Shown here piece by piece: positions 18,780-64,000 of a DNA stretch of 64,000 nucleotides (the stretch's first letter is position 1; every line of letters begins with the position of its first letter). The stretch is from the UHGV virus genome UHGV-1367859; one strand, 5' to 3'. Below the pieces are notes generated by a model. That model was not told the origin of the DNA. It did not search any database and saw only the letters and a list, made by a program, of their open reading frames with translations. The DNA comes from a virus. A program made the translations under genes and the position numbers.

Positions 18780-18788
18780 CAAGTAAGT

Positions 18789-18859: not shown

Positions 18860-18865
18860 CTATAT

Positions 18866-19354: not shown

Positions 19355-19541
19355 ATATAATAATGAACCAGTATTCTATTGCAAACATTGCCTATCTCTT
19401 AAAATAAGAGATGCTGGTCTTCCTGACCTACTTTACTGTGATGACTGTGGCTCAGCTGATGTCCTTTCAACAAGTATAGAAGAATGGGAGAAGATGTACA
19501 AAGAGAAATATGGATTTAAGTTTTTAGATAAGGGTTTATAA
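19218..19541 (+). CDS. hypothetical Zn-ribbon protein
   Basis: CKHC ... CDDCG cysteine pairs. Confidence 0.4.
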   Translation: MFQFMGSFTQRDLSITGHQERTAGPLMNLERRYMGNSEIKADLQSKYNNEPVFYCKHCLSLKIRDAGLPDLLYCDDCGSADVLSTSIEEWEKMYKEKYGFKFLDKGL

Positions 19542-22174: not shown

Positions 22175-22583
22175 TATGACACTTGAAGATGTAATTGAAT
22201 CACTTAATGTGCATATACTGAATAAAAGAAGAGACTTGCACATCTTGTCAAACAGCCAGGAACACCTTGTTCTACAGAGAGTTATAGAACCTCATCCTAC
22301 ATTTAAGTCATATAAGAGGTATGAGTTTATATTATGGGTGGTTGGTAATGATTCAAAGTATAGATTACTTACTTTGACTAAGCAGGTTAATATGAGTGAT
22401 ATTCCTTCATATGCACAAGAGAGCTTTATTAAAGCTACAGAATCTGAATTTGTTACTGGGCTATTCGGCCTTATTCTAGATGGCAAGTCTTTTAATAAAA
22501 AAGACAGAACAATACTTGAAGATATTATCTATGGAGAATACCTCGGCTATGGAGATGAATGTGTACTAGACCCCCTTGACTGA
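22140..22583 (+). CDS. hypothetical protein
   Basis: 147-aa ORF. Confidence 0.4.
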   Translation: MLRKKQCMKICNMTLEDVIESLNVHILNKRRDLHILSNSQEHLVLQRVIEPHPTFKSYKRYEFILWVVGNDSKYRLLTLTKQVNMSDIPSYAQESFIKATESEFVTGLFGLILDGKSFNKKDRTILEDIIYGEYLGYGDECVLDPLD

Positions 22584-25500
22584 AGAACTCCTTGGGTCTT
22601 TACCTGAGGAAGTCAAGGAGGAGTTATTGGACACTATAAATAGTGTAGAACTTATAAAAAGACTTATCTCTCCTAATAGGGTATATGCTAAGGATAGACC
22701 AAGAGATGAGCAAGGAAGGATTATAGTAGACCTTGCCAATCCTCATATACTTGAGGATATGGATTATTTCAGACAACCAGCCTTACACTTTATGAAGCAT
22801 GGCTGCTATACTTTTCTAAGACCAAATTCTAATCCTAACAGTGAATACAGAAAGCACTGGGATGAGGAGATGAGGAGATGTAGAGAGGGTTATGTAAGGG
22901 AGAGTGATGGAGAATGGGTCACAGGATTCCTTTATTGGTTTCTTAATTACTGTCCCATGATGGTAAATAAGGTAATTTCTGGCACAAGGAAAGCTGTCAG
23001 AGTTGAGTCTTTCCCCTTCTTCTTTGAAGGAATCTATTGGAGATTTCACTATCTTCATCAAGCAAGAGAGGCTGGTAAACATGCCATAGAACTTGCAAAG
23101 AGAGGTTGTGCAAAGTCATATAGTCTTGCAAGTATAATGTCTCACAACCTTATACTTGGTGAATCTACTGAAGTAAAGAGGAGGGTTATTACTGTACTTA
23201 CTGCTTATCAGAAAGAGTATCTTAGTGACAGTAAGGATGGCACACTCTCTAAGTTCAAACCTGGAATTAACTTCTCCTTCAAAAATACTCCATTCCCTAG
23301 GCTCATGTTAAAGAACTCTCCTAATGAGATGGCATGGCAGATGGGCTACAAGGATGAGTTTGGTATTGAAAGTGGGTCATTGAATCAGGTGCTTGCTGTT
23401 TCTGCAAAGGATGACTCAGAGAAGTTAAGAGGTAAGAGAGGTTGGATTCTATTCGAGGAGATGGGTTCTTTTAAGGGACTTCTATCCCTGTATGACATCA
23501 CAAGAAAATCTGTAGAAGATGGTGACTATACATTTGCTACAATGTACCTTGTAGGTTGTGTATGTGCTGGTACTAAGGTATGGACATTAGATGGCAGGAA
23601 TATCAATATAGAGGATTTAAAGAGAGAGGATGGTATCATAGGATTTACAGACTCCTTTGAGTCAGGTACTGAACCTAATATTCGCCTCACAAGAGGGATT
23701 ACCAAAGAACCTATAATGAGTTCTATAAGTATTGCTAAAAAACCATGTGTACTTATTAAACTGAGTAATGGAAATGAACTTAGATGCTCTACAGACCATC
23801 CAATTCTTACTCAGAAACAAAGAATGAATCATAATGGGTCTATAAGGTATTATGAAGAAGTATTCAAAAATGCTGGAGCTTTAAGTGTAGGAGATAGAAT
23901 TATAGAGAGTAGGGAAGTTCCAATATTTGGGACAGATACCATGTTTGACCCTAGATTAGTAGGTATGCTTATTGGAGATGGTTCTTATGGATTAAGGCAA
24001 TCCCCCAAGTATAGTTCTGAGGATAAAGAGCTTTTAGACTATGTAAAGCATAGATATGAATGGTCATTATCTGCTACTCATATTACCAAGAAAGGAAAAA
24101 TATACGAGGATATAAGAATTAAAGGTATTTGTAATAAATTAAGAGAATTAGGTATTTAGGGGCAAGTAAAATCCAATAAAAGGCTTCCTATCAACTATTA
24201 GACTCTTACAAGAGATGATACCTCACTATTGCTATCTGGATTATATGATACTGATGGTAGTATAAGCTTTAATAGAGACGGATATATATCTTTAACTCAA
24301 AGCAATAGGAAAATATTAGAGCAAGTTAAAGTACTGTGGAGAAAATTTGGAGTAGTTGGCACTATTGTGGAGACCAAGCCAAAACTATGTTCTGATAGGA
24401 AAGATAGAAATTCTTGGTTTACTCTATCTATATCAGGGAGACATAATTGTACAAGAGTGTGTGGTGTGCTTCAACTTCTTGTTCCACACAAGAGAGATTG
24501 CCTTAAAAGGATAATGGACTATTATAATAGCAATCCGAGTATGAAGGCTCAAAAATATCCAGAGGATATAATAGTTCACAAAGTTACTTCTGTAGAAGAG
24601 ATAGGTGAACAAGAAGTATATAATTTAACTGCTGGATTAAGTCATACCTACTTGGCTAACAATATAGTAACTCATAATACTGCTGCTGAGGATGAGTCAG
24701 ACTTCAGTTCGGCAAAAACTCTTCTTTACAATCCAGATGGTTACAATATTCTGGCTATTGAGAATGTCTATGACAGACCTAAGCAAGGAAAGCCTACCTT
24801 TGGATTTTTCTTTCCTTCTTATGTAAATAGGGCAGGATGTTACAACAAGGATGGTGTTTCTGATGTAACAAAGGCTCTCATAGAAATTCTGTTGGCAAGA
24901 CACAAAGCTAAATATTCTGCTGACCCTAAGTCAGTATTAAGAGTTATTGCCGAGGACCCAATTACACCAGCTGAAGCTATCATTAAAGTGAAGGCTGCCT
25001 ACTTTCCTACAGTAGCTCTTACTGAGAGATTGGCTCAACTTGACTCAGACCCTCATGCTTTTGATGATGTTTACATAGGTAATCTTGCCCTAGCAAGTGG
25101 TAATAAGGTAGAGTTTAGAATAGGTAATGATGTGCCTATCAGAAAGTATGGAGTTGACAATTCAACAGTAGGTGCTATTGAGATATTTGAAATGCCTGAG
25201 AAACAAGCAAATGGGGATGATTTCAATATGAGATATATTATAGGCCATGACCCTGTGGATAATGATTAGGCAGAGTCTTCTTCTCTTTCTTCAACCTTTG
25301 TACTTGACCTGTTTACTGACAGAATTGTAGCAGAATACACTGGTAGGCAGGCATTTGCAGATGATAACTTTGAGATAGTAAGAATGCTGTGTCTATTCTA
25401 TAATGCCAAGTGCATGTACGAGGCTCATCCATATAGTCAGTCTGTACCAACACCAAATGGTATGAAACTGTGGAAGGATGTTAAAATAGGGGATAAACTG

Positions 25501-26904
25501 TTTTCCCCCACAAAGGGTGAAGTAACAGTAACTAATATACCAGTTGATGAGTACATGCCTATATATAAGGTTAAATTAGCTGATGGCAGAATTGTAGAAG
25601 CTAGTAATAATCATATATGGCTAGTATATAAAGGAACTTCTAGAACTCCTATCGAAATTACTACAGAAGAAATGCTTAGGTCAGGGTTAATAACTAAACA
25701 CAAGCAACATAAGTTTTTTATACCTGAGCATAATGGGGTTGATTATAGTTATAAAGAATTGCTCATAGACCCCTATACTATGGGTTTATTGCTTTCTGAA
25801 GGGAGTCTAACAGGAGGTCATTGTGGCAAAAATTATGTACAGATGTCCTCTTCTAGGGAAGATATGGATTTCTACAAAAAGAATATCCCATATAGAGTTA
25901 ACTATATTGGTAACAAGGGGTACTCTTGGCATATTTATATTCCAGGATGTAGAGATATAATGACTAAATATGGGTTATATGGAGCTACAAGTCACACTAA
26001 GTTCATTCCAAATGAATATCTTTTCAGTAACTATGTTCAGAGAATGGAACTACTGAGGGGAATAATGGATGGAGATGGGTGTGCCAGAACTAGGGGGGCT
26101 AGTGTATTTATTACATGCTCACAGTCACTTGCAAATAATGTATTATCCTTAGCTAGAAGTTTAGGGATGAAAGCATGGCTTCAGACTCCTAAAGAAGGGG
26201 TATATAGAGTGTTGATATCTTCCATATATAAGATATTCAAACTCCCTAGGAAAGTAGTGGAGCAACATACTTATAAGCCTTATAGTAAAGGAAGTAGAGC
26301 CTCAGCTATATTAGGAAAGACTGCGATAGATAGTATTAAATATTCTCACATGGAAATGGGCAAATGTGTCACTGTAGACTCAGATGATGGACTATATATG
26401 ATAGGAGATTATGTAGTAACTCATAATTGTAATAAGAAAGGACTATATGCCTATTTCAATAAAATGAATTGCACACACCTACTGGCAGATACTCCTGAAT
26501 ATTTAAGAGACAAACAGATGATTAAGTATTCTGCCTTTGGCTCAAATGCAAAAGGTATCAATGCGAATGCTACTATCAACAATTATGCTAATAACCTGAT
26601 AAGGGATTGGCTACTTCAGCCAGTTCCAACTATAATAAAGGAGGATGGAGAAGAGAAAGAGGTCAATATTCCAAGGCTCTATTCTCTAAGAAATAGAGCA
26701 TTACTTGAAGAGTTAATTTCCTACACTCCTGAACTTAATGTGGATAGAATCAGGGCATTAGGTATGGTTATGCTGTATAGACAAGAGAAGATTATACTGT
26801 ATAGAGATAATCTTAATGCTAAGGCACAGGAGGAAGTCAGTAGTTCATACTTAGGCAATGATTCTTTCTTCCAAAGGAATTACTCCCAAGGGTATATACA
26901 GTAA
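22576..26904 (+). CDS. terL: terminase large subunit interrupted by two LAGLIDADG inteins; contains 3 in-frame TAG codons
   Basis: The track ORFs at 22576-24159, 24229-25269 and 25384-26904 are all in frame 1, separated only by TAG codons at 24157, 24211 and 25267. Intein hallmarks are C-VCAGTKVWTLDG ... LIGDGSYG ... LYDTDGSI ... VTHN|T, and C... LLSEGSL ... IMDGDGC ... VVTHN|C. The exteins carry a terminase ATPase/nuclease-like sequence. Confidence 0.65.
23557..24678 (+). mobile_element. intein 1 (Hint splicing domain plus LAGLIDADG homing endonuclease)
   Basis: Begins at a Cys (block A CVCAGTKVWTLDG) and ends at ...NIVTHN with +1 Thr. It has two LAGLIDADG-type motifs and contains two in-frame TAG codons. 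Confidence 0.55.
25411..26427 (+). mobile_element. intein 2 (Hint plus LAGLIDADG), N-terminal boundary approximate
   Basis: LLSEGSLTGG and GIMDGDGCA are LAGLIDADG motifs. The C-terminus is DYVVTHN with +1 Cys. The N-terminal Cys could be 25390 or 25411. Confidence 0.45.
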
Positions 26905-31109: not shown

Positions 31110-31152
31110 TGTAGATATGACTAAATAGGAAAAGGATGAACTATTTAATGAG

Positions 31153-32214
31153 TTGCTAGCTTTTCTCTCTAGGTCTTCAGTAAGTGTTGAAGACCTTCCA
31201 GAGGCTGGCAGCTTAGATGATGTGAATAGTTTTCCTGCATATAAGAAAGACTCTAAGGAGCTGGTAACCATTCCTTCTAGTGCTCTTAAAGAAGCTTCAA
31301 ATAAAGCTGATGCAGCTGCTCAGTCTGCACTTAGTGCATCTTAGCAATGTATGATTGCTGGAGCTAATGCTAACAATGCTGTATAGAGAGTCAACTAGAC
31401 CTTGAATTCTTTGCCTGGTTAGGTAGAAACACTGGTTAATAATTCTACTAGTGCACAGTCTAATGTAAATTCTAGAATTATTAATTTCTATACAAGTAGA
31501 CCTTCTTCTAATGCACTTGAATTAGAAATAACTGTATCAGAAAATGATTATAGAACTTTTGAATAGCTTCTGGAAGAAGAGTATGACTATGCTGATAGTT
31601 ATGACCATAGACCAATAATATTTACAGTTCTACAGAATAATGGTGTACCTAAGTATAGGAAGATTGTTTATGACAATAACCTTAGGGATAGTTAGAACTA
31701 TATTGACTATGACTTAAGTGGACTTCATGAGAGAATAGATACTCTTGACAGTAGGGTTCCTTATGATGCAGGAATAATAGAACTAGATTTAGTAAGTCAA
31801 GGAGAAACAACTTCCAAACAGGAAACTTTATTGCCTTCTAATAAAAATTATTTCAAATTTATAGAGATACTAGAATAGAGGGATAATAGGACTGTGCTAT
31901 GTACTATTGTCCCATCTAAAACTTAGGTAGGAAGTCCTTATACTGGTTTCAGATTCTTATGTTCTCTTCATAAGGATGGCTATGACTGGTCTATTCTTAC
32001 AGGTAAATATATTGATGTTGGTGAGGATGCAATAAACATTTATTATCTTTGTATTAAATGTTATAAGCCAACTTTTGGAGTAGGTGATGGGATGAGTATA
32101 TTAAAGTATCCTATTAAACAAGTAACTATTAGGCTTACTGAAGGTGAAGGAGATGGTCATTGTACAGAATTGTAGGAGATTAAAGCAACTGAAATAGTTG
32201 AAAAAATGATATAA
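31153..32214 (+). CDS. amber-recoded structural (tail-fibre-like) protein
   Basis: 353 codons with about 10 in-frame TAG and no TAA/TGA until 32212-32214. Confidence 0.5.
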
Positions 32215-32237: not shown

Positions 32238-33295
32238 ATGGAAATTGAATATTTAGGAAAAAGCTCTTTTAATAAAATATAGAACTAGCTTCAGCTTCTT
32301 AATTCCTATAGTGAATGGAAAGACATCACTGAAGAGTGTGTTCATATTGGATATAAAGTTAATCCACAGATAGTTCCTTAGGATTTGCAAGAAGGTAATG
32401 ACATTTTTGTGGAAGATGAAAATAGTATTGCAATAAATGCTGTAAGCCTCTTATCAGAGGATGCTACTTGGTGTGGTGACTTGAACGTTGCGTATAACTT
32501 TAAAATATTAATTTAGCCTAAAGCTTCTTCTAGCTCTGACATGGGTTTAATTGCTCAAACTATCTTAAGTAAGGATTTTGTTGGAAAAACCCTCGTAGTA
32601 AAAGCTGCTAATATTGGAGAGGAAGTGGAAGAGGATTACTCCATATAGGACATAACAGTTAGTGAAGTTTTAGAAAATGGACTTACATATAAATAGAGGG
32701 AGAGCAGGTTTTTCAATGAGAAGGAGCAATTTGTGGCAAGCCTAATGGTAAGTTAGGCAGTAGTATCTTTCCATTATAACCAGGAATATAAATACAAGGT
32801 AGTTTACAAAGACTCTGTCTTTACAACGCCAGCCGACTTTGTAAATAAAATGGTATATGGAGACGCTCCTTTTAGTATGATTGGTTAGAAGCTCTCCTCC
32901 GCAACTTTCAGTGATGATACCGATTAGATAAGGACCCTCTGGCCATAGGGTTGGGCCTCTTTTATAGTTGTTCCAGTATATGAAGGCGAGCCGAATGGTA
33001 ATGTTAAGTCAGGTCTAAGAGTTGAATATTATAGTGGTGATAACACTAAACATGAAACTATAGTGGACAATACATCATACCAGTCTATATATGGTTAGAC
33101 TGATTATCTTATTATACCAAAAGTAAAAGGAGCTACCTAGTCAGACTACCTAGTTATAGGTAGGATTGACTCAGCTTTTAAACCAGTGGGAGTTGAAATC
33201 TATGAGATGACTGCTCCTTATAGATAGATTGTCGATAGGGTAAGTGATGTAGACTATAGAATCAGAGAATTAGAAAAGTAGCTGAATGCTACATA
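32238..33295 (+). CDS. amber-recoded structural (tail-fibre-like) protein
   Basis: About 352 codons with about 15 in-frame TAG, terminating at TAA. Confidence 0.45.
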
Positions 33296-33317
33296 AATAT
33301 AATATTTTTTTTTCTAA

Positions 33318-47991: not shown

Positions 47992-48686
47992 CAAAATATA
48001 TAAGCATAAGACAAGTTCTTGATAACCTGATGGATAATCCCTTGCTACAAGATTTATCTTTAGAAAGGGCAGTCAATTATGCTGTCAGGTTCATACAGAA
48101 GGTAGGTATGCCCTCAATATTCCTTGAGAAAACAGAGAAGGTTGAGATAGAGAATTATAGAGGTAAGCTACCTTGCGACTTCTATGAAATGATACAGGTA
48201 AGAGCAGTTGGTCATAACTGTAATGGAGTACTTCATGAAGTATTCAGATACTCTACTGATTCATTTCATATGAGTCCTGATAAGACAAGAGATAATGACC
48301 TTACCTATAAACTACAGGGAAGTTGTATTTTTACTTCTATGAAGGAAGGAACTATAGAAGTAGCTTATAGAGCTTTCTCGACAGATGAAGAAGGATTCCC
48401 TCTCATACCAGAGAATGGTTCTTTTGAGGAAGCACTTGAGCTATTTATAAAGGTAAAACATTTTACAGTTCAGTTTGAGCTTGGTAGGATAACTCAACAG
48501 GTTCTGCAACACGCAGAACAACAATATGCTTGGGCAGTGGGTCAAGCTCAGTCTGACCTTGTTAGGCCCTCTATTGACCAACTCCAATCTTTCACTAATT
48601 CTTGGAATACTTTAATCTCCAGGACTAATGAGCATAGCAAAGGGTTTAAAACTCTTGGTTCTAAGGAGTATATCAAACTTCATTAA
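47988..48686 (+). CDS. hypothetical structural protein
   Basis: 232-aa ORF. Confidence 0.45.
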   Translation: MTKYISIRQVLDNLMDNPLLQDLSLERAVNYAVRFIQKVGMPSIFLEKTEKVEIENYRGKLPCDFYEMIQVRAVGHNCNGVLHEVFRYSTDSFHMSPDKTRDNDLTYKLQGSCIFTSMKEGTIEVAYRAFSTDEEGFPLIPENGSFEEALELFIKVKHFTVQFELGRITQQVLQHAEQQYAWAVGQAQSDLVRPSIDQLQSFTNSWNTLISRTNEHSKGFKTLGSKEYIKLH

Positions 48687-48696
48687 TTATATTAAC

Positions 48697-51600
48697 ATGA
48701 TGTATTCAGATAATCATATATTTAAAGGCCTAAGGAGAGATGTTCACCCATCAAGACAAGATGAGTCTTTTTTATGGGATGCTTTAAATGTGAGACTTAC
48801 TAATAGGGATAGTGATACTGGGTTTTCTATCACTAATGAGAAGGGAAATACGGACACTGGTGTTGTTTTTGATGGGTAGTACGTAGGACATTGTGTGCTT
48901 AATAGATACTTAGTAGTATTTACTGTAAGTTAGAATGACACTCAGGAAGTATCTAGAATATATAGACTCCATGAAGATAAAGGGGAGTGGATTAAAGTTA
49001 CTCTATTTGAAGGAGTGCTAGGTCTTGATGCTAATCACCCTCTAGAAATATTAGGGGATAGTGAGTCAGTTCTTGTGAATAAGTTGTATTGGACAGATGG
49101 AATTAACCAGCCTAGAGTTATTAATATAACTGCCCCAGAGTTGAAACTTCCTGAAGATATAGCTAGTAAAGTTATAGTAGACGGAGTTAATTTCTCAAAT
49201 CCATAGAAAAGTGAGGGAGTTTCCTAGGAAGTTATAGAAAATCTAGAAAAGTGGTATGAAAAAGGAAATTGGATATACAGAGCTGAGTCTCCATTTGATT
49301 TTGTATAGAACCTATAGTTAAAAGAAAGAGTACTGGTAGGTAGAAGTTCCAGTCATGGAGAATTTTCTCCTGGAGTAATTCAATATGCTCTTACATACTT
49401 TAATAAGTATGGGCAAGAAAGTAACATATTCTATGTATCTCCCATATAGTATATAAGGAATTATGATAGAGCTGGTAATCCAGAAGAGAAGGTTATAACT
49501 TCTTTCACAATTAAAGTAGAAAATGTTGATAACTTTGATTATATAAGGGTTTATTCTATACATAGAACTTCACTAGACGCATAGCCTACAGTTAAGATTG
49601 TAGCTGACTTAGACTTAAAAGATTGCTAGGAGGAAAGTGCTGAAGGAGAATACTGGTATGATGTGTTTGGTTCTGAGGATTAGCTGGTAAAAACAATTGA
49701 ATATACAGATACTGGTCTTACTGGTTCAATAGAAGACCCTGCTAAACTATTATATACTGGGGGACAAACAATATTAGCTGGAACTATCACTAGCAAAGAA
49801 GGAGTGATGTTTTATGGAAACATTACTGTTCAGAAAAATACTAAAGAACTAACTACATTACTTCAATAGGAAGAGGCTGAAAATGGGGACTCTTTAGGGT
49901 TAACAGATTGTTTTTTAGCCGAAGATACTTATGATAATTAGGGTATAAATAAATACTATCCTTATCTACCATAGTTTAAGCCTGGTCATTTTAAGGCAGG
50001 AGAAACATATAGATTAGGAGTTCAATTTTAGTTTAAGACTGGAGAATGGTCAGAACCTATTCCATTAAACAAAGTCATAAGGAATAGTGATGGTGATGGT
50101 GATGGTTTTCTTGATGTAGAGTTAAATAATTCATATTCTTGGGGCACTATTGACGGGGTGGATACTAAGGAACTTTAGTTATTCCCTAATGCAACTGCCT
50201 CATTATTAAAAGCTGGAGTAAGAAGGGCTAGAACTTGTGTTGTTTTCCCTAAGCCAGCGGAGAGAAATATTATATGTTAGGGAGTTTTAAATCCTACTGT
50301 CTACAGTGTGAGAGGAAGGCACATGAATAACCCATATGCAATGTCATCTTGGTTCTTTAGGCCATCTCCTGTATATGTAGATGGAAAGCCAAAAGAAACC
50401 TCTACCTCGATAGATTAGGGGTCGACTATTTAGTATAAACATAATTATACACTTTTCAGTGGAGGTAATAGAAGTGCTGAAATATAGTCATCTCTGCCAG
50501 GAGATTCCAATAAGTCAATATAGGAAATTATTTCTCCCTCTGATGGTATAAAGTCTCATTATTCAACTTTTGCTGTTGATAGTAACTTAGTTACTTTACA
50601 TTCCCCAGAAATTGAGTATGGGTCCTATATAAATACTACTCAATTAGAAGGAGCAAGGCTAAATATTGTTGGAGCCGCTAGCCTACATGGATTGTATGGA
50701 GATATAGATTTAGCAGTGACCTCTAAAGCTAGTTCTCAGGCTGGAGGATTTATACATCATCCTGTAGGATTTCCAGTGAACTGTACTACTCCTAATACTA
50801 CTGTTAATGGAGGATTTGTATCATCATGTTGTTTTGAAGATAAAATACTAAGAGGGGATTTTTTAGATGAGGATAGGACAGGTATTGTTAAATATTTAGT
50901 TTATCCTTGGCATAGAACAGGCTCACTAAATAATGATATTGTCAGGTCTCCTGAGATTATAGAGAAATCCGGAAGTGATAGAACAGCTATACTAAAATGG
51001 AAGATTATTTCCAATTTAAAGTATTTTGAAAGTAAGTCAACTTTTTTTAACTCTAATAACCACAATATTAAAATTACAACTCCTAAGTTATTCTCTTCTA
51101 AAGAGGTTACAGGCTTAACTGTTCGTGTTCCACATTTAGACTAGGATGTACTATACTTTGGAAATGTAGATGATATTGTATCAGCCACATCAGATTATCC
51201 TATTTATGCTGGTACTGATGATAGTATTTCACAAGTATCCCCTACTAATGTATCTACTTCTGGGGAGTCAGTAAGAATGAAGTATAAATCATCTCCTCAC
51301 TTAGTATTCTCTTTATATGATGAGGATAACCCTAAGGTTATTCCAGTACTACCATACACTTCTGTTACTGGTGAGACTATAACTTCATAGTATACCCCCT
51401 CTGGATGGGAGAATAATACTTCTACCAGTACTTCATATCCTATCCTTTCATTTATAGGCTCAAAAACCTTTTATGGGACTTATAACAAAGAGGGGAACTT
51501 AGTACTAGATGTTGACGATACAAGTGTGACTGCTCTAGGAACCTATCAGATTGTAATGGCTTACATTGGATCCATAGCTAAGCGTGTATTGGTTAAAAGG

Positions 51601-53466
51601 GTAAAGATAGGAGAAGCAGGGTATTGGCAGGTACAAAACTCAGGAACTAAAGTGACTGTTTTAGTGAAGAAAGGATGTATAATCTATCATCACTATGTAA
51701 ATGGTGAGTGGGTAGGAGTTCTTCAGAATGCGGGGCCAATAAAATGGGGTCCTTTTGAAAACTTACAGGATGGTCATGATAACTTTTAGTATCTTGGGGA
51801 TTAGGTATTATTAAACTTAAAGGTATCTCTCGGAAATATAGTTGGTATTACATCTTATAAAATGTATTCAGAGCCATCTACAGATAATACAGATAATACA
51901 GATAATACAGATAATACGTTTACCATCCAGAATAGCACTCTGTAGTTACTTGAAGAGGATAAAGATTATTCCCCCACATTACCTATAGCTGAATTAACAT
52001 AGTGGGTTGACCCAGACACTAGGTTTGGAGGTAAATCGGATGAAGCTATCAAAAATAACTTATGGGTTCCAAGTAGTGAGTCAGTTCCTCTTGTATCAAC
52101 TCCACATAAGATAATTACGATTCCTTATGCCTATGGGGATACATGGTGTACAAGATATGATTGTGTAAAGACTTATCCTTTTGCAGATGATGATACTAAT
52201 TAGATAGTAGAAATAGGTTCATTTATGCTTGAGTCACATATTAATCTTGATGGAAGATACGATACTAAAAGAGGGCAGCTATCCAACTTCGACATTACTC
52301 CTGACTCTTATAAGATAAATGAAGTATACTCTTAGTTAGATAACTTCTTTAACTACAGAACACTAGACAAGGACTATTATAAAATAGATACATTTCCTTA
52401 CTAGGTAGCATGGTCCTTAAAGAAAAATCCCTAGTCTATAATTGACCCATGGACTAATGTCACTTTAGCTAGTACCTTAGACCTTCCTGCTGATAAAGGG
52501 TCTGTAACATGTCTAACCTCCATCAATGATACTCTTATTGGCTTCTAGGAAAAATCTATTAGCTAGATTATGTTTAATTCTAGAGTATAGCTCAATCCTA
52601 CAGACGGAGTACCTATTGAGATAGGAAATTCAAACAGAGTAGATGGGTTCAGGATTCTATCCTCTACTATTGGATGTGCTAATAAATGGTCTATTATTCC
52701 TACCTCAACAGGTCTATTCTTCATAGATAACGAGTCCAAAAGTATTTATAGATATGGTTAGGAATTAGTAAATGTAAGTGAGCTTTCAGGAATGAGTTAG
52801 TGGGTTAAGAATGATGTTGACTTATCAGAGTGGACTCCTACAGGAATGGGAGTAAGAAGCTTTGTTGATAATATGAATGGGGATGTATATTTCTCTCCAG
52901 CTCATGGCGAAGAAGCTTTATGTTTCTCAACTAAGCTTAACTAGTTCACTTCCTTTTTAAGTTATGGTGAAACTGAAGGTATGTTTGACTTTGAAGGTGG
53001 TTTTTACTCTATAAAATAGGAATAGGATAAAGTTAGGCTATGGGAGAACTTCACTGGGGTATATAATGAGTTCTATGGTAACTTTAAACCATTTAGTTTC
53101 ACTTATATATCTAATGGTAATTCTCCTTACACAAAAATTTTTGACACAGTGGAAGTTAATGCTGAAGTACGGAACTTTGGCCAAAAGGATAATTCTGATA
53201 AGCCATTTGATTTTATCCAAGCAGAGAATGACTATTAGAAAGCTTATACTGACCTCACTAATAGTAGAGATATAAGGAAGAAGTTTAATATATGGAGGAT
53301 TAATATTCCTAGGTCTCCTTATGTAGCACAAGATGGTAAAGATGTTATAAGGCACTATGGTAGGGCAAGGATTAGAAATCCATGGAGTGAAATAACTCTA
53401 GGGAGTGCCTCACATAAAAACTAGAGAGTGACAATATATAATGTATCTACTAAGTACTCTATGTAA
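48697..53466 (+). CDS. giant tail-fibre/tailspike-like protein, about 1,590 codons with about 50 in-frame TAG codons
   Basis: Frame 1 stays open from ATGATG at 48697 to TAA at 53464-53466 with no TAA/TGA. It absorbs the track ORFs 48628-48879, 49015-49206, 50692-51144 and 51526-51789, which are all in this frame. It carries DNT and DG repeats and is followed by a terminator. Confidence 0.6.
51888..51923 (+). repeat. 4 tandem copies of a 9-bp repeat (gataataca) inside the tail-fibre gene
   Basis: gataatacagataatacagataatacagataatacg encodes (DNT)4. Confidence 0.6.
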
Positions 53467-53568: not shown

Positions 53569-56043
53569 ATGGCAAAGAAACTTATTAAAAAAAGAACAAA
53601 TAAACTCCTTTTTGGGAGGAATAATTATTTTGCATGGGGAGGTACTCCTGATTATCTAGCTGGAATACCAGGTATGGATGATGCTTTTTCTATGCCTGGT
53701 ATTAGAGAAACTATGCCTGGAGAAGCTATATCAACAGGGCTGCAAGCTCTTACTAAAACTACTCAACCAACTGCTGCTTCAGCAACCCTTCCTCTTCCAC
53801 CATCTGGAACTACTAATCCATCCTTAGGACTTACTCAATTGGGCAAACAGGGTATAGGACTAGGAAGTGCCTTAACTGGTTCAATTGTAGGTAATGTAAT
53901 TGGAGGAAAAAGGTCTAGTGCAGTAGGAAATGGAATTAGTAGTATAGGCTCAACTGTAGGTGGAGCCTTAATGTCTGTAAACCCAATGGTTGGGGGTATA
54001 GTAATGGGAGCAAGTTAGCTACTTGGAGGAGTTACTAATAACTTATTTGGTTCTGAAAGAAATGAAAAACTTATAAGTTCTTTAAATAATCAAATATCCC
54101 AGGCTGGACAGTTTAAATCAAGTGCTACTGATTATGATGCTTTAGCTTAGGAGATGGCTACTGCTCCAACAGTTGGATACTTTAATCATGATGATTTAGG
54201 CAGTTAGGGTGCATTTAGTCATGATATAGATGATTTATATTAGGATATGAGCAAAAGAGCTGATACTGCTAGGCAATATGTTAGTTCTTCTTTAGAAAAT
54301 GCACAGTATAATATAGGATAGACTAGGAAGAGGGATATACTTAGAAACATAGCCTCATATGGAGGTCCATTGTACTTTGCAGAAGGTGGAGGAATACATA
54401 TTAACCCAGAGAATAGAGGTAAGTTCAATGCTACTAAGAAGAGAACAGGAAAGACTACAGAGGAATTAACCCATAGTAAAAATCCTTTAACTAGAAAGAG
54501 AGCTATATTTGCTTAGAACGCTGCTAAGTGGCATCATGCCTTTGGAGGAGACCTTATGACACATGGAGCTGACTTTGATACAGGACTTGTTCTTGTGGGT
54601 AATGGAGGTACACATGAAGAAAACCCTAATGAAGGAGTTCCTATGGGAATGGATGCTGAAGGCATTCCTAACCTTGTAGAAGAGGGAGAAGTTATCTTCA
54701 ATGATTATGTATTTAGTAACAGACTAAGAGTTCCAAAAGCAGTAAGAAAGAAATATAAACTAAGAGGAACAAAACCTCTCACCTTTGCAGATGCTGCTAT
54801 TCAAATGAGCAAAGAATCTGAAGAGAGGCCTAATGACCCTATAAGTCAAGCAGGTCTTGTAGATAGTATGGCTAAGTTGATGTCAGTACAAGAGCAAGTA
54901 AGAACCAAAGGTGATAAGAACAAGTTTGCAAAAGGTGGTAAGATGGGAAGAGTCTATGCTGGTGAGCAAGGAGACCCTTATTCTAACCTACTAGCTTTAG
55001 GTTTAGGTCCCATAAATCCTTCCTTTACTACATTCGGTTTTGATAGTCCTACCCCACAAGATACCCCAGCACCAAGAAATAAAATGGGCATTGTACTTGG
55101 AGGATACACTTCAAATCCTACTGTAATAAAGCCAGGTGAATCTACTATACCAGGAATAATTAGAACTAACAATACTAAATATCCATCTCCTCCTCTTATA
55201 AATAAAAAAGATTCTATTGGAGATAGCACATCAACTGAACTGGCTCCTACTTGGATGAGATATGTACCTGCATTTGCTTCTGGTGTAATGTCTATCACAG
55301 ATGCACTAGGTTTGACCAATAAACCTGACTATGGAGAAGCAGAAGCTGCACTTGAAGCATCAAGAGGAGCAGGCAACTATACTCCTGTAAAATTTAGTCC
55401 TGTTAGTAACTATTTAACCTACAGACCTTTTGATAGGGATTTCTATATTAACAAACTCAATGCTCAAGCTGGAGCTACTAGGAGGAGTATCCTTGATACT
55501 TCAGGAGGTAACAGAGCAACTGCAATGGCAGGGCTTCTTGCAGCTGATTATAATGCACAAGGAAGGATGGGAGACCTTTTCAGGCAAGCTGAAGAGTATA
55601 ACCTTGCACAGAGACAAAAAGTTGAAGAATTTAATAGAGCAACTAATATGTTCAACTCTGAAGGAATATTCAAAGCTGACCAAGCTAACCAAGCAGCACA
55701 GCTTCAGGCAAGGTCTGCATCTCTTAAGGGAGCACTTACTGCTGCTGAACTCAGACAAAGAGAGAGACAGCAAGCTGCTGCTGCTAGGAGTGCTAATCTA
55801 TCAAACTTTATCAACTCTATTGGTGATATTGGCAGGGAGAACTTTTCAAGAAATATGATTATAAGCGACCCATCTAAGTACTATAGCATCGGGGATAATG
55901 GAGAAATTTCCTATAAAGACCCCTTCTATGATTTATCCGAAGCAGAGCAGGATTATGTAACTGGCCATGCTAGTAGAAAGAGTAAAAGCAAAGGTAGTAC
56001 TAAGAAAGCAAAAGGTGGTTATTTAACTATAAATAGAAAATAA
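53569..56043 (+). CDS. large virion protein with a Gly-rich N-terminus (tail-associated candidate); about 6 in-frame TAG in the first third
   Basis: Track ORFs 53569-54018 and 54556-56043 are in the same frame. The intervening 540 nt is open apart from TAG codons. It ends with TAA. Confidence 0.5.
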
Positions 56044-56044
56044 T

Positions 56045-57823
56045 ATGGCAAGCTACGGTTTAATACTTAATACTAAATTCAAGCCATTCTCCTATGCAGA
56101 GATGCTTGCACCTGTAGCTGCTGCTACTCAAGCACATCAAGCTCTAGAAGAGGAATATGGCAAACTATCTGCTAAGGCTAATGTATGGGAAGAAATGGCT
56201 AATGAACAAACAGACCCTTACGCATATAAGATGTATAAGACCTATTCTGATGACCTTGAGACTAGAGCTGAACAGTTAATGAGGTATGGTCTTAATCCAG
56301 CAAGTAGGAAGAGTATGCTTGATATGAGAGCAAGATATAGCAAGGAAATAGTCCCTATTGAAACTGCTTATAAGAGAAGAGAGGCACTGGCACAGGAACA
56401 GAGACAAGCTATGGCTAAAGACCCTACTCTAAGGTATCAAAGATATGCTAGAGATATGAGCTTAGACGATTTTATAAAATCTCCTTCATTAGATTATGGC
56501 AGTAGTTATTCAGGAGAGCTGCTTAGAAAGCAGGTAAGTCAAATAGTAGCTAATTATCAGAGAGAATTGACTGACCCAGGCAAGCTGGAGAAACTAGGAC
56601 TACCTTATCAGTATAAGATTAAGAAACAGCAAGGAGCTACTTCTGCTGATATATGGGCTACCATAAACAGAGATGCTAGTATGGGAAATCCTGAAGCAGT
56701 GGCCTTTCTTACAAGAATGAGGGATTCAGCTTTACAAGCATCTGGAGTATATGACTGGGCCAGTAAAGAGGACTTGGTGCACTTCCAGAACTTTGCTAAT
56801 CTTGGATTGGCTGATGCTATTGGTAAATCTGACATAAGTACAGTTAAAGATGACTATAGTATAGCTATGGCTAAAGCTGCTTATAGTGGTCTTGGAAGGT
56901 CTAGAAGGACTAGAAGGGGAGGTGATTCAAATGATAATGACAGATTGCCCTACAGAAGAATATCTACTATTTCTGACACTGATAAGAAATCAATGAGTAA
57001 AGGGAAATCAGTACTAGAATTTGTAAATGGGATGATGGGTCATTACGGAGAATTAGCTAATGCCAACAAGGCAGTAACCCTTTCTAGAAAAGACTCTAAG
57101 AAGTTGCTAGAGACTCCCGCAGATGCCACAAGAACGCAGGTTAATATCGGGGCAAGGACTAATGGGCAAGAAATAGATACAAGCCTTACTTCTGCAAATG
57201 CTGGTAGACGGAGGAAATCTCTTGATGAATATGCTTCCAAATATGGTACTTCTATAGACTACTCTAGTGAAGCAGCATATGAAGCTAGTATAAAAAAACT
57301 GCAAGGAGCTGTACAACAAGATATACAGAAGTCAATGTCACTTAGCTCTGTATGGTATCCTAATTCTACAAATCTTGAATATGTAACGGAGCCAATTGTC
57401 CAAGCAGTTCAGACTTTAAGTACTACAGCTGCATTAAGAGGTGAAAGAACAGGCATAGTTGATAAAAAGGGCAAAGCAGTTTCTTCAAAAGACTTAGACA
57501 AAATAGTCTCAAGTAGAGCCAAAATTCAGTTTAATTTTAATAGAGGAGGTGACATAGAGGCATGGTTGAGCTATAAAGAAAAGGAGAATGGGGAAAATAA
57601 ATATATTAAAATACCTGTTGATGCTCTTGATATGGGGGATGGAACACTTATAGGCCTATATAGTAAAGCCTCCTCAGCTCAAAAATCTGGGGACTTTATA
57701 AGAGCAGCAGAGTATATGGATGATATACAATCATATCTAGATGCAGCTGCAAATTCTAGAGCAGAGGTACAATCAAAATCAAGTTCAAATTTAGAATTTT
57801 CATTCCCATGGCTAGAGGATTAA
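56045..57823 (+). CDS. large virion protein
   Basis: 592-aa intact ORF with a TAA stop. Confidence 0.5.
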   Translation: MASYGLILNTKFKPFSYAEMLAPVAAATQAHQALEEEYGKLSAKANVWEEMANEQTDPYAYKMYKTYSDDLETRAEQLMRYGLNPASRKSMLDMRARYSKEIVPIETAYKRREALAQEQRQAMAKDPTLRYQRYARDMSLDDFIKSPSLDYGSSYSGELLRKQVSQIVANYQRELTDPGKLEKLGLPYQYKIKKQQGATSADIWATINRDASMGNPEAVAFLTRMRDSALQASGVYDWASKEDLVHFQNFANLGLADAIGKSDISTVKDDYSIAMAKAAYSGLGRSRRTRRGGDSNDNDRLPYRRISTISDTDKKSMSKGKSVLEFVNGMMGHYGELANANKAVTLSRKDSKKLLETPADATRTQVNIGARTNGQEIDTSLTSANAGRRRKSLDEYASKYGTSIDYSSEAAYEASIKKLQGAVQQDIQKSMSLSSVWYPNSTNLEYVTEPIVQAVQTLSTTAALRGERTGIVDKKGKAVSSKDLDKIVSSRAKIQFNFNRGGDIEAWLSYKEKENGENKYIKIPVDALDMGDGTLIGLYSKASSAQKSGDFIRAAEYMDDIQSYLDAAANSRAEVQSKSSSNLEFSFPWLED

Positions 57824-60800
57824 CAGGTATAAATACAAAAGAAGGGGCGGCTAGAGAAGCAGACAGGATGGGTCAAGCTCCCACAAGTTTTAAATCAGCA
57901 GTAAGGCAGAGACTAAGAGAAACTCCCTCAACTCAGTATATAGGAGATACTGTACCAGAAACATTTGGTGACTCATCATATGATTATAATGCTGTGCTTC
58001 CTAGTGAACTTGAAGACCTTCAGGAGCTGAGAGCTTCTGAACAATCAGGTGTGAACCAACTAGCAGCAGGTATAGCCAAGGGGGCTATACTTGCTGGCGC
58101 TACATTTTTAGATGGTACTGTCGGACTGCTCCTAGGAGCTGGAGCTGCTATAAATGAGGGGAGATGGTCAGCTATTTGGGATAATGACTTCTCAAAAGCT
58201 ATGCAAGCTGTAAATGAGTGGTCAGAAGAAGCTCTTCCTAATTACTATTCCAAAGAAGAGCAAGAAGGGCCATGGTATGACAACATATTTACAGCTAACT
58301 TTATTGGTGATAAGTTCATTAAGAACTTAGGGTTCTCAGTAGGAGCCTTATATTCAGGAGGTGTAACCTCAGCTGGGCTTAAAGCTACAAAGCTGCCTCA
58401 ATTGATAGGAGCTATAACTAACAGTGCTAAAGCTCCTGCAATGGTATCTACAGCTGTTGGGGCTGTTACTTCGGCAGTAAATGAGGGAAGAATTGAGGCT
58501 TTGAACAATTCTAAGGACTGGCAAAACCTTAAAGTACAGGAGCTGGATGATATATGGAAGCAGAAATTAAACGAAAAGTATCAGCCTGAGCTAGATGCCT
58601 TAAAAGCAGAATATGATGCTGCTCTCGCAGAATATGAATCAACCAAAGGAACTCTTCAAAGAGCAGGTTCAGGGGATAGTACAGCTTTGGCAGACCCAGC
58701 TTATTAGAAGTACAGAGCCAAACTTGATAGTCTTGACAAAAAGATGGAGGCCCTACAAAACACTATGAGTGCTATGTGGGACAACAGGTCAGCTGATAAG
58801 ACATATAGGGAAGCCTTAGGTAGAATCTCAGAGGATAGACTTAAGATGGGAAATACAGACTTGCTTCTCAATCTTCCTATACTCATGGCCTCTAATATTG
58901 TTCAATTTACTAAGTTTTATTCTAGGGGATTTAACACTGGCAGGAGAGCCAGTGTGGGATTGGCTGAAGGGGCAACTAGAAATGCACCAAGATACATTGG
59001 AAAGGAATTTTCGCCTATAAAGGCAGCTGGAAAAGTTATAAAGGGCGCAGCAGCAGAAGGTACAGAAGAAATATCTCAGAGTGGCGCCAGTGCAATATCA
59101 GGGGATTATTATTCTACCGATGTTAACAACTTCATCAAATCAAAGATAGACCCAGATGCAGAGCAAGAGACCTTAAGTTGGACTAAATCTTTTGCTAAGG
59201 GTATCAATGAGACTATTAATGATAGTTCAGCTTGGGAGGAGTTTTTCATTGGTGCACTTACTGGTGCTTTGGGGATTCCCACATTTAGAAGTATGAAGAA
59301 CTCAGAGGGGGGATTTAGACTTCCTATAGAAATACAAGGTGGTGCTTGGAATGAAATAAAAGAGTATCAAAGAGAGGTTGCAAGGTCCCAAGAAGTTGCG
59401 AATTATCTTAACCAAAGGGTGCAATCTCCTGAGTTTCTCAATTATTATCAGGGTCTCATCAGACATAATAAGTACCAAAGAGACATGAATCAGGCTGTTG
59501 AGGATGATGATGAGTTTAACTTCAAAAATGCAGAACATGCTCAGTTTGTATCTGATATTATAATGTTTGATAATGCAGGAAGATTGGAAGACCTTAGAAC
59601 TCTTATAGATTCTTCCTTTGATATGTCAGATGAAAACTTGCAGTCTATAGTAGAGAATACTACTTCTACTGATGAAAATGGTAAAAGGATTGGCCCGTTT
59701 GTAGATAATAATGGGAATCCTATGTATGCTACTGAAGAGGGCAAGAAGTAGATGACTGCTAAGCTTACTGCTTCCAGGGATAATATGATTGCTACTTTAG
59801 ACAATTATGTAAAAACTAAAGAGAACATTGATATAAGAACAGGTGGAAATCTCACAGATGAGCAACTGTCAGAACTCACTTGGATGAAAACTCAGGTAGA
59901 TGACTGGACTAAGAGAGCCAATGAAATGACTCCCCTAGTCAAAAAGACTCTTGCTGATTTAAGCAACAATTTGGAACTCAGACTTGCATCTACTCTTAAT
60001 AATGTAAGTAGTGAAGGAAATGCCAGTGATATAGAAGCAGTAGGAGAACTTGCTAATAAACTTGGCATAGGGAGTAAAAGAATTAAGCAACTTATGGAAC
60101 TATCTCACATGGAAGATAGTAGGTTGGCTGCAATTTTGACATCCCCTAAAAATGAGAAATTTGTAGAGGGTCTCATAGAAGATATTAACAGCTTTGGTAG
60201 TGATATTATAGCATCGTTAGATAAACAAAATGTGGTGAGGCTCCTACAAGACTTACCAAAAATAGGTAAGGGGGTACAGACCTATAATAAGAAGTTAGAA
60301 GAGTACCTTACAGACCCTGCTAAAATTCAGGGGGATATTGAAGCTGCTACCCAACAGGTAGCTACTCAACAAGCTGAGAAGAAAGCTGCTGATTTAAAAA
60401 GCAGACTATCAGCTGCAAATAGTGTATCTGAACTAAGGTCTATCATTACTGAAGAGAACATGGATTCTGCTGTAGAGGGTGTTTTAGGGGAACTTGAAGC
60501 AGAAGGCAACCAAGTTGCAAAGAATTATAGAGAAACTGCCCAATACAATAGAGAACTGAATAAGGCTCTTTCAGAAACTGGGGAGGATGAATAGGTACTT
60601 CAAGATGCCATGTCCTTGTGGTAGGAACACTCTAATGCTGCTGAGAATCTTGAACAACTTGCTAATCCTAACTCCATCTTTATCAATAATGAAGAAGCCT
60701 TTATGGAAGACTCAGGTGGTGATGTAGATGTTGCTGGTAATAGGTTCCAAAATGCAAGATATGCTCTTCAGAGAGCCATGTCAAAGGTTAATAATGACAT

Positions 60801-63800
60801 AAAGTTTAAGAACAGGTTCTCTGAGGAATATAAGAGACCTATAAATGAGCCTGTAAATGACAAAGGTATTGATAAGGATGAAACTGGAGACAGTGGCACT
60901 TCTACTGTACCTCATGTGAACCCAAATGCAACTCCTATTGAAACAACCCCTGCTCCTGTTGGCAATGTAACTGCTGAGATGGTTGCATCTGAGAATAGTG
61001 ATTCTAATAGGAGAGTGGAGACTCAGAGAGACCTTGACAGGGGTCAACAAGGTCAAAGGAAGTACTATAGACCTGCTATTCCTGAACTTCATATAGAAGC
61101 AAGTAAGGAAGGGGACTTTAGACCTTTCGACACTGTAGTATCTGAAAGAGAGTCAGGTGTAGACTTCTCAGGTATCTATAGTTACCTCAGAGACAATGGA
61201 GCATTCAACTATGTTAATGCAGCTAAGTTGAAACCTGGAGATACTCTTGGTTTCATGATTGACCCTGAGTTTAATGACCATACTATCTTCTTAGTAGATA
61301 CTAGAAACAATCAGATTGTCGGTAGTATTGATGAATCAGATGCTTCAGTTGCTAGATATGAAGGTCTTGAAAACATCATAAGAAAAGTAAGAGATGAGTT
61401 CCAAAAAAGAGGGGAGGAGGCTACTGGCAAGTTTTTTGCTACCCCTCAAACAAGAGTGTCAAAAATGATGGTAGGTAGAATCCCTTATAGTACAGAAGAG
61501 AGAAGCCTTGCTGATATTCCTGGTGTACTTGATGGAGAAACTAAGCCTATCTTTGGTATTATCAAAAATGGTGTGCTCACTACTAACGAGAAGATTGATG
61601 ACAGGCTTATAATCAAGCCTGTTGATATGTCTCAGAAAGAAGGTAGACTCTACTTACTTGTACCTAATGGAGCTGGTACTTATAGTCTTGCTGCTGTGAG
61701 AGTTAGGCACTTTAATACACAAGAGTTCAACCTTGCTGATGCTACAGTTGCAAATACTCCTATAGGTAAAGGTATCAATGAATCTCTTGATAGGCTTGCA
61801 GATGCAACATCACAGGATGACGTATCTATAGCAATGAAGGAACTTGCCCAGGACATCTATATGCAGGATGTTATGGTAACTTGGTTTGATGCTAAAGCTG
61901 GTAGTGGTATTGTAGTAAGTAAGAAGGTGAGGAAGCCTGATGGCACTTATGAAATGGTTACTATCAATGGGCAGGAGCAAATTAAGGAAGAGAAAACTAC
62001 TATCTATTATCAGAGTAGCAAGAAGGCTATTGAAGTAAATGGTCTTGAGTATACCTTTGAGGCAGCTAAAGATGCTGGTATAGATATGTCTCTCTTTGGT
62101 CAACCAAGAGACCCCTCTGAAATAAGAAGAGACATACTTGATACTATACTTAGGTATAATCTTCCTCTTCAAGTAAGTGCTTCAAAGATAAATGAGTCAA
62201 GTTACAATAATAGGGTAATTAAGTCTAACATACTTACTTCAAACCTTAGAGAAGCTAAGGTTATAGGGAGCTGGTTTACTACTGACTACTTTGACAATCA
62301 AGGCAATCTTCAAAGAGCTATAAGTCCTTCCTCAGTTAAGCCTACACCAAGTAGAAGAACATCTTCTCCTGTAGGAGGAACTGAAGGAGTAGTACAAGGC
62401 ACAAGAGTAGTAATTGGTAATACTCCTTATGTAGTTGACCTTAAGCATAGTATAGCTGTCAATGAGAAGACTGGTGAAAGAAGAGCCTTCTCTACTTTCA
62501 ATTCTCAGGGACTTATTGACATGGCTTGGGCACAGGAAACCTTTGGGGACTCTACTGAATCCTCAAGGATGACTGAGAATAAAATTATTACACCTAGGGG
62601 AGAAGTTCTTAATAGAAATACTGGTAAATATATAACTGGTACAGAGGCACAAAGAATAAAGGACAAGATAGCTGGAAGGAATCAGGTTGATGAAGTGAGA
62701 ATTGCTCAATCCAAGAGAGTTATTGCTGACATCTATGAGAACCAAAAGAGAGTAGATAAGACAAGAACTGATAGTGACTACTATTATATTCTTGAGGATG
62801 ATGGTCAGTACCATCAATATTCTAGAGTTCATAGTAGACTAGGAGATAACTGGCTTGGGGAGAGAACTGCTAACAATAATTCAGAAAGAGCACTTAAGGC
62901 AGGCACTGCTGTTGATAAGGTAATTAGAGATTTCTTCACATCTAAAGAAACCCCTGTAAAGCCTGATACTCTCTCAGAGTCTGCATTTATAGACTTGATT
63001 TCAAAACTTACGGAAATCAAATCTAGGATGGAACAAATGGGAGAAACCTTCATGGCAGATAATATTGTTCTATTCCAGAAATATGCTGATGGTTCAAGAG
63101 TGGCAGGAGAGGTTGATATTCTATCAGTTGATAAGAATGGCAACTTCAAAATCTACGATGTGAAGACTAGCAGGTATAGTTTCAGTGATAGATATTTTAC
63201 TGAGAAGTCTTCTAAGCAAAGGATGAGCACTAAAGACTACTATACCCTACAACTCTCCGCCTATCAGAACCTCTTTGAATCTCAGTATGGTGTAAGACCC
63301 ACAAGGTTAGCTATTCTTCCTTTTGTACTTACATATGAGAATATATCCTCATCCAAGACAACTTTACCTAATGGTAAAAGAATAAGTTTAGCAGTACCAT
63401 CTCAAACTTCTACTGGAGGCTATTTTAGAACTGATAAGACTGTATCTGAGGATGAAGCTAGATTTGAAATGGTGGAGACTTCTAATGAAGAAGTTGAATT
63501 TGCTCCTATTTTAAGTTCTCAAGCTCATAAGACTTCTATGAAAGCTACTGATGCAAATAAGGCAGCTATAGAATTTGTAGGTGGAGACCCTAAAGAAGCT
63601 GTAGACCTTATATTAGTTGAAACAGGTAAAGGAACTAAAGGAGATAAAGGAAGGGTGACTATTACTAAGAAAGCAAAGATATTTGCTGTTACTCCAGGTA
63701 CTCCTTACGTGCCTCAAACTGAATCTAGAGTAGCTTCAATAGAAGGACAAAAAGGTATACCTATTACCTATAATCCTGCTGTTAATGTACCTCTTGCTAG

Positions 63801-64000
63801 CTCAGTGAGAGCACCTCAGCAACAGAACTCTCTACCTATCTTTGACTCTACAATGGAAACACTGATTACTGACAAAGAGCAGAATAGGGTTCTTCCTGAG
63901 AATGCTTTTGAAGAGGGAGGTGAGATAGGCTACTATGAGAAAGATGGTAAAGTCTACACTGGTTATCTTAAGAAGATAGGTGAGATAGAAATTACACATC
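57808..64000 (+). CDS. giant ORF (over 2,060 codons, 3' end beyond the window) with 4 in-frame TAG
   Basis: Frame 1 is open from 57808 to the window end. TAG at 58705, 59749, 60592 and about 60619 are the only interruptions. Track ORFs 57808-58707, 58744-59751 and 59752-60594 are consecutive pieces of this frame. Confidence 0.45.

Follow-up and report, generated by a model that had tools for sequence, protein, structure and literature searches.

Four in-frame UAG codons in the giant cargo gene of a TAG-recoded crAss-like phage very probably encode glutamine

We analyzed a 64,000-nucleotide stretch of the viral genome UHGV-1367859 (the window). At its right-hand end, frame 1 of the plus strand is open from 57808 to 64000, comprising 2,064 codons with no TAA, no TGA and four TAGs. 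This agrees with the original prediction of a frame of more than 6 kb that starts at 57808, runs off the window and is interrupted by TAG only. Over the same interval, frames 2 and 3 contain 138 and 303 stops, respectively, which rules out chance as the cause of the openness of frame 1. Three listed ORFs (57808–58707, 58744–59751 and 59752–60594) and an unlisted open stretch of 1,125 codons following 60622 share this frame. The unlisted ORF of more than 1,100 codons that had been noticed earlier is thus present, but not its proposed start at 60697, since the last TAG is not followed by an ATG until 60703. The four TAGs are codons 300 (58705–58707), 648 (59749–59751), 929 (60592–60594) and 939 (60622–60624). 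Only the second is followed directly by ATG, where two such junctions had been claimed; the other three read TAG AAG, TAG GTA and TAG GAA. All four lie within the first 38% of the gene, which is only lightly recoded (TAG makes up 4% of its Gln codons).

The giant gene begins with a 16-nt overlap with the gene for crassvirus cargo protein 2 (56045–57823, plus strand), a gp46 orthologue identified by synteny and by Pfam crAss_CARGO2 (E = 1e-86), which has no TAG. Further upstream on the same strand, the muzzle gene (gp44-like; 48628–53466), fragments of which match Pfam crAss_MUZ, contains 40 in-frame TAGs against 22 CAA and CAG codons combined, and the residue most often aligned to its TAGs in relatives is Gln. 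The order muzzle, cargo 1, cargo 2, gp47 and then RNA polymerase genes on the opposite strand is kept (Pfam crAss_MUZ, CARG1 and CARGO2). The earlier attribution to a crAss-like phage holds, and the placement is Steigviridae/Asinivirinae: the MCP is ~80% identical to those of cr85_1 and crAss001, its best matches among named phages being at ~80% amino acid identity and an unannotated 4-kb fragment at 81%. No lineage at close identity was found in INPHARED or IMG/VR.

The giant gene (57808–64000, plus strand, for its first 2,064 codons) is the orthologue of crAss001 gp47. Across the window part, the protein is 45% identical to crAss001 gp47 (1,819 aligned residues, colinear), 57% to its counterpart in cr85_1 and 57% to that in bajarodcaudo virus 1, and the alignment to each of the three passes through every TAG. 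Conservation likewise crosses the stretches that have no ORF call under the standard code. Independent homologues of the individual pieces had been proposed as the observation that would speak against continuity; in the unrecoded relatives the gene is instead one colinear ORF of 2,341–2,671 aa. Together with the tRNA-CUA in the window (see below), these relatives bear out the idea that the gene makes a single uninterrupted protein exceeding 2,000 aa and depends on TAG suppression to do so. A search of IMG/VR for close recoded relatives with CAG-to-TAG changes gave a best gp47 match of 54% identity and mostly unrecoded genes; 70 of the 80 relatives had an open frame without TAG over the 5–8 kb fetched. 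Intermediate relatives for comparing the TAG sites were therefore drawn from the protein database. In the closest of these, L093 and L094, CAA or CAG covers all four positions: codon 300 is CAA and codon 648 is CAG in L093, and codons 929 and 939, CAA in L094, are Gln in L093, L094, cr85_1 and bajarodcaudo virus alike. Codon 648 is Glu in cr85_1 and bajarodcaudo virus, inside a conserved NGNPMYAT.EGK context. An apparent frameshift in L093 was rejected as a scaffold gap of Ns.

The stop codon falls outside the window, and the full length of the gene is therefore taken from an identical contig. That contig, locus L006, shares 17,956 nt with the window at 100% identity and has a TAA at codon 2451 of the gene. 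Judged from this sequence, the gene most likely has 2,450 codons, with its TAA ~1.16 kb past the window end; the window holds the 5' 84% of a gene of about that length. Six independent metagenome assemblies, 99.9–100% identical to the window, share all four TAGs, which are thus not sequencing errors. Samples that carry this phage include those behind ERZ28645365 and ERZ27274998. Five sister strains (L004, L005, L007, L008 and L009) carry a 160-codon ART-PolyVal insert (Pfam, 44 bits; cut-off, 31.2), which bears a fifth TAG seven codons into the cassette; the strain matching the window has no ART domain.

In two strains, TGG is changed to TAG at the otherwise invariant W1682, the codon just upstream of the nuclease domain (see below). 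This is not the expected Gln-to-TAG route, and we counted it against the recoding account.

TAGs are widespread among the late genes. Window-wide, 97 in-frame TAGs fall in 12 plus-strand late genes, including those for TerL, portal and muzzle, and in two genes neighbouring the muzzle TAG accounts for 59–67% of Gln codons. All 20 tabulated plus-strand genes with a stop inside the window terminate in TAA or TGA, as do 18 of the 19 standard-code ORFs on the minus strand. In a tblastn comparison, the residue most commonly aligned to TAG was Gln (35 of 155; background, 4%). Upstream of the late genes lies a phage tRNA array, one member of which is a well-formed, UAG-decoding suppressor tRNA with a CUA anticodon (18302–18374, plus strand; ARAGORN anticodon cta; Rfam tRNA, 55 bits; gathering score, 29). 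In the 5' acceptor strand and the D arm, this tRNA is almost the same as the phage tRNA-Gln(UUG) at 14222–14294, and the syntenic array of the unrecoded cr85_1 is present without the CUA tRNA. A search of the window for a release-factor gene or other code-change factor found none, nor any GGQ-type motif, which also counts against the recoding account.

The window is thus from a TAG-to-Gln recoded crAss-like phage, and we consider it very probable that the four UAGs are Gln codons in one cargo gene of ~2,450 codons, read by the phage tRNA(CUA). UAG would have been reassigned from stop to glutamine, so that the four in-frame UAGs would be ordinary Gln codons; the tRNA at 18302–18374 would read them, charged presumably by host GlnRS, and termination would be left to TAA or TGA only. 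How suppression is timed against late-gene expression is inferred. The product would be a ~260-kDa protein that is carried inside the capsid and then ejected into host cells, packaging in this phage being presumed from its relatives.

Several other explanations of the four TAGs were considered. The TAGs may act as leaky stops that give nested products of 299, 647, 928 and 938 aa in addition to the full-length protein, either at set ratios or with truncated forms early and the full-length form late. A suppressor always competes with RF1, and some termination at each UAG is therefore to be expected; the clustering of the four TAGs toward the start of the gene and the sister-strain TAGs in the ART-PolyVal cassette and at codon 1682 also fit such a scheme. 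However, the muzzle gene, which is essential and belongs to the plus-strand block of the giant gene, needs all 40 of its UAGs to be read, which indicates efficient UAG reading in the late block, and together with the heavy TAG usage of its two neighbours it argues for nearly complete read-through at each codon. No 5' bias is seen among the 97 TAGs (mean relative position 0.47), for which reason translational gating via such a bias was rejected, and at the TAG sites of the giant gene relatives simply have Gln and no conserved boundary. Nested products, which the original prediction had offered as the alternative, are accordingly very unlikely. It is also unlikely that the UAGs serve as strain-variable gates on the C-terminal effector modules of an injected polyvalent protein. 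If they did, the ART-cassette UAG and UAG1682 would set the dose of the full-length protein, with its nuclease, protease or ART modules, relative to the N-terminal ejection/scaffold part, and amber codons would be a means of dosage control, not neutral Gln synonyms.

The public standard-code calls amount to four or five separate genes (299, 335, 280 and 1,435–1,485 aa) that share a frame by chance. Gene callers have split every public contig in this way, and one junction does have the TAG-ATG form; against this, the other three junctions lack a start codon, the piece between the TAGs at 60592 and 60622 is only 9 codons long, and the interval from the last TAG to the next ATG, with conserved residues such as ENLEQLANPNSIFINN, would be non-coding. 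A search for promoters at the TAG-ATG junctions had been proposed; no signal marks the junctions in a sigma-70 and terminator scan, a tool whose coverage does not extend to Bacteroidetes-type promoters, and promoter- or terminator-like sites were at background (9 found, 8.6 expected). The colinear single ORFs of the relatives in practice refute separate genes, to which we assign next to no probability. Equally slight is the chance that the gene is a decaying pseudogene or that its TAGs are assembly errors. Multiple premature stops are the classic signature of decay, but here the stop is TAG alone, never TAA or TGA, in 2,064 codons with zero frameshifts; the TAGs are identical across the six assemblies, and the essential TerL, portal and muzzle genes show the same pattern.

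The giant protein contains a PD-(D/E)XK (RecB/Cas4-like) nuclease domain at aa 1683–1837 (62854–63318, plus strand; PHROG 298 exonuclease, E = 1e-9; Pfam PDDEXK_1, 25.9 bits against a cut-off of 22). Its motifs GEVDIL (with D1770), IYDVK (with K1785) and QLSAY, at 63106–63267, are conserved in three relatives. In an AlphaFold model that covers aa 964–2064 with a mean pLDDT of only 59, the top Foldseek matches in the PDB were all RecB, Cas4, RecE or Exo5 nucleases, at weak scores (E 0.008–0.08), and central beta-rich regions (aa ~1290–1480 and ~1530–1650) were confidently modeled with no PDB match. An HEAFH motif is conserved with crAss001 gp47, and a zincin may be proposed from this motif alone. 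The N-terminal 1,600 aa gave nothing significant against Pfam and PHROGs. Thus, the product may be a multi-domain protein of the polyvalent type, with a hydrophobic and coiled-coil N-terminal part, a nuclease, a zincin HExxH and, in sister strains, an ART-PolyVal ADP-ribosyltransferase; the domains are presumed to be enzymatically active.

The orthologue crAss001 gp47 (AXQ62690.1) is annotated as a "putative RNA-polymerase subunit", and a virion RNA polymerase had been suggested for the window gene, with a DxDGD-type motif as the check. The catalytic motif DxDxD, which together with two DPBB domains marks crAss-like virion RNA polymerases, was sought by regular expression. Neither the 2,450-aa protein nor any of three gp47 orthologues has a D.D.D.D-type match; the motif is located in the gp50 orthologues instead (SGSDFDVDK). 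Phmmer and two profile searches returned nothing relevant to RNA polymerase from the PDB, and Foldseek on the model of aa 964–2064 matched nuclease folds only. We therefore rejected an RNA polymerase identity, and the inherited label for gp47-type proteins is not supported. In its domains, the giant protein resembles an injected polyvalent protein, not a catalytic RNA polymerase.

A crAss-like virion RNA polymerase is known in phi14:2 gp66, as described in a later paper's account of it (Drobysheva 2021, cited in PMC10172136). That protein, like the one proposed here, is a giant encoded beside the structural block and is packaged and injected, steps which for the window protein are inferred; unlike it, the window protein has no DxDxD, no PDB sequence or profile match and, over aa 964–2064, no RNA polymerase fold by Foldseek. 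A close known counterpart is crAss001 gp47, a 262.5-kDa cargo protein detected in virions by mass spectrometry (Bayfield 2023, PMC10172136). The two agree in their colinear homology, in their place after muzzle, cargo 1 and cargo 2, and in having both the PD-(D/E)XK and HEAFH motifs. They differ in that the crAss001 gene uses the standard code and that two segments are missing from the window lineage, one of ~28 residues following W1682 and one of 9 residues within the nuclease domain; in addition, sister strains have gained the ART-PolyVal cassette.

Polyvalent proteins, which occur in phages and conjugative elements, were reportedly described by Iyer et al. in 2017 (compare Pfam ART-PolyVal, PF18760). 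Like them, the giant protein would be a virion-delivered chain of nuclease, zincin-type peptidase and ADP-ribosyltransferase modules whose domains are gained and lost as cassettes between strains; unlike them, it has its zincin by motif alone and no ART in the window strain, and its delivery is extrapolated from crAss001. These modules suggest an injected protein for host manipulation or anti-defence, in an abundant gut phage group. The main value of the finding is in annotation: with TAG read as Gln, a 2,450-aa protein with recognizable parts (nuclease, zincin motif and a swappable ADP-ribosyltransferase) is restored from four or five unnamed fragments in public contigs.

What is known of phage code reassignment is unchanged by this locus. 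Earlier papers have described recoding in this phage group: the use of TAG for Gln, with suppressor tRNAs, in late genes of beta-group crAss-like phages (Yutin 2021, PMC7886860), TAG-to-Gln recoding in ~105-kb crAss-like phages (Borges 2021, bioRxiv 10.1101/2021.08.26.457843), and proteomic and metaproteomic proof of Gln at UAG in two other crAss-like phages (Peters 2022, PMC9523058). As in those "code 15" beta-group/Steigviridae phages, TAGs of the window phage lie in late and structural genes and align with Gln, a phage CUA tRNA sits in the tRNA array, the replication-side block fits the standard code and TAG preference is uneven between genes. Between the "code 15" phages and the phage described here, there is no difference in kind.

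Frame 1 of 57808-64000 (+) runs for 2,064 codons to the window end, and its translation is broken only at 58705, 59749, 60592 and 60622. As the original prediction stated, all four breaks are TAG (codons 300, 648, 929 and 939), TAA and TGA are absent, and the three listed ORFs share one frame with the open stretch past 60622. Over this interval, stop codons number 138 in frame 2 and 303 in frame 3, so the open frame 1 cannot be due to chance. Six assemblies made independently, at 99.9-100% identity to the window, have the same four TAGs. Two details needed correction: TAG is directly followed by ATG solely at 59749, not at two junctions, and past the last TAG the next ATG comes at 60703, not 60697.

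The prediction of a crAss-like phage holds. The window has ~70% nucleotide identity to crAss001-like phages (Steigviridae/Asinivirinae); its major capsid protein is ~80% identical to that of cr85_1 (Kahnovirus) and 78% to that of crAss001 (Kehishuvirus); and the order of the muzzle gene (48628-53466, +), cargo protein 1 3' of it (53569-56043), cargo protein 2 (56045-57823, +) and then the giant frame matches crAss001 gp44 to gp47.

In unrecoded relatives, the orthologue is a single unbroken ORF: crAss001 gp47 (2,341 aa), cr85_1 QOR59483 (2,518 aa) and bajarodcaudo virus XHH63388 (2,671 aa). The window translation is colinear with these three proteins at 45-57% identity, and the alignment passes through each TAG and also covers the stretch from the last TAG to the next ATG (ENLEQLANPNSIFINN), which is uncalled by standard-code ORF calling. 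Thus, one continuous protein of more than 2,000 aa is supported, the opposite of separate homologues for each piece. In L093 and L094, the closest relatives recovered (55-65% identity in global alignment, 75-85% in the best local segments), all four TAG positions are CAA or CAG (Gln). An apparent frameshift in the L093 giant gene (~5820-5835) is a run of N marking a scaffold gap and no true split. Among more distant relatives in IMG/VR, 70 of 80 lack TAG in the corresponding open frame (5-8 kb fetched). The promoter signals suggested for the TAG-ATG junctions did not emerge: sigma-70 promoter-like and terminator-like sites near the TAG junctions were at background level (9 vs 8.6 expected).

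Reading TAG as sense lengthens the largest plus-strand ORFs of the window from 1,125, 704 and 596 to 2,092, 1,616 and 1,502 codons; no such lengthening is seen with TGA or TAA taken as sense. In total, 97 in-frame TAGs are spread over 12 plus-strand genes, including TerL, portal and muzzle, and every one of the 20 tabulated plus-strand genes with a stop inside the window terminates at TAA or TGA. Among the 19 minus-strand ORFs (1-10.7 kb) called with the standard code, TAA or TGA is the terminator of 18; the sole TAG-terminated ORF (9441-9767, -) would gain 21 codons, to 9378, by suppression. Window-wide, Gln is the residue most often aligned to TAG (35 of 155 positions vs 4% background). The TAG share of Gln codons is very uneven among genes, being 44% in an unknown ORF (13055-14089) that precedes the tRNA array, 4% in the giant gene and 0% in the major capsid protein and several other late genes. 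A Pfam search with the four non-muzzle genes listed for uneven TAG usage gave no match. The large terminase gene (22411-26904; five in-frame TAGs) has 1,497 codons vs 762 in cr85_1. Two insertions account for the difference, one at aa 404-756 (an intein that carries a LAGLIDADG endonuclease) and the other at about aa 1208-1262 (homing-endonuclease-like).

A CUA-anticodon tRNA (18302-18374, +; Rfam tRNA model, 55 bits) lies within a 21-gene plus-strand tRNA array directly upstream of the late genes, and its 5' acceptor strand and D arm are nearly identical to those of the phage's own tRNA-Gln(UUG). The array is syntenic with that of unrecoded cr85_1, which has no CUA tRNA; at the place where cr85_1 carries a DpsA-like gene, the suppressor stands on its own, with tRNA-Leu on one side and tRNA-Thr on the other. 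The window has 23 tRNA genes in total (14222-18939, +; 8672-9082, -). No release-factor gene was found in the window.

The TAGs are best explained by plain sense-codon reassignment, with one product from the giant gene. The phage tRNA(CUA), presumably aminoacylated with Gln and expressed in time with the late genes, would decode UAG as Gln and outcompete RF1 there. The original prediction offered leaky stops that give nested products as an alternative. This is unlikely, since the muzzle gene in the same plus-strand block requires decoding of 40 UAGs (65% of its Gln codons) and two neighbouring genes 3' of portal (31117-32214 and 32238-33296) have TAG at 59% and 67% of Gln codons, which implies that per-codon read-through is close to complete. 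Also against leaky stops, the 97 TAGs are not skewed towards 5' positions (mean relative position 0.47), and relatives have ordinary Gln sites at the TAG positions.

Contig L006 matches the window at 100% identity over 17,956 nt, and in it the open frame continues to a TAA after 2,450 codons. In five further near-identical contigs (L004/L005/L007/L008/L009, about 18946-19425), a precise insertion of 480 nt, absent from L006, lies close to the gene's 3' end and just past the window end, with no evident flanking repeat. The insertion codes for an ART-PolyVal ADP-ribosyltransferase domain (44 bits vs cut-off 31.2 for Pfam PF18760) and has a fifth TAG, in frame, seven codons in; the gene then has 2,610 codons. 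Presence and absence alleles are both common among near-identical strains. At codon 1682 (62851-62853), which directly precedes the nuclease domain, TGG is replaced by TAG in strains L007 and L008 and in protein cluster P0003, whereas crAss001, cr85_1 and bajarodcaudo virus all keep Trp there. The variant is a W-to-Q substitution if UAG is recoded, or else a truncation.

The 262.5-kDa crAss001 gp47 was found in virions by mass spectrometry and placed in the capsid cargo zone, and its label 'RNA polymerase-associated' rests on inherited annotation only (PMC10172136). The RNA polymerase motif DxDxD was not found in the 2,450-aa protein or its three orthologues; gp50 orthologues carry it as SGSDFDVDK. 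No relevant match in the PDB came from phmmer or from two profile searches run on all its chains. A PD-(D/E)XK nuclease domain was found at aa 1683-1837 (PHROG 298, E=1e-9; Pfam PDDEXK_1 above cut-off), with its GEVDIL, IYDVK and QLSAY motifs kept in the three relatives compared. For aa 964-2064, an AlphaFold model reached a mean pLDDT of 59, with good confidence in the domains; its best Foldseek matches are all RecB/Cas4/RecE/Exo5-type nucleases, with weak E-values (0.008-0.08). At residue 2259 the protein has a zincin-type HEAFH motif, shared with crAss001 and cr85_1. Taken together, the domains predict a polyvalent, injected effector-type architecture and not the catalytic RNA polymerase.

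Public gene calls split the giant gene into unnamed fragments of 299, 335, 280 and 1,435-1,485 aa, so the practical consequence of reading TAG as Gln is better annotation. The recoding itself is already known in kind. TAG-to-Gln reassignment with suppressor tRNAs is concentrated in late genes of beta group crAss-like phages (PMC7886860), occurs in ~105-kb crAss-like phages with TAG preference uneven between genes (bioRxiv 10.1101/2021.08.26.457843), and is borne out by metaproteomic data for two crAss-like phages (PMC9523058).
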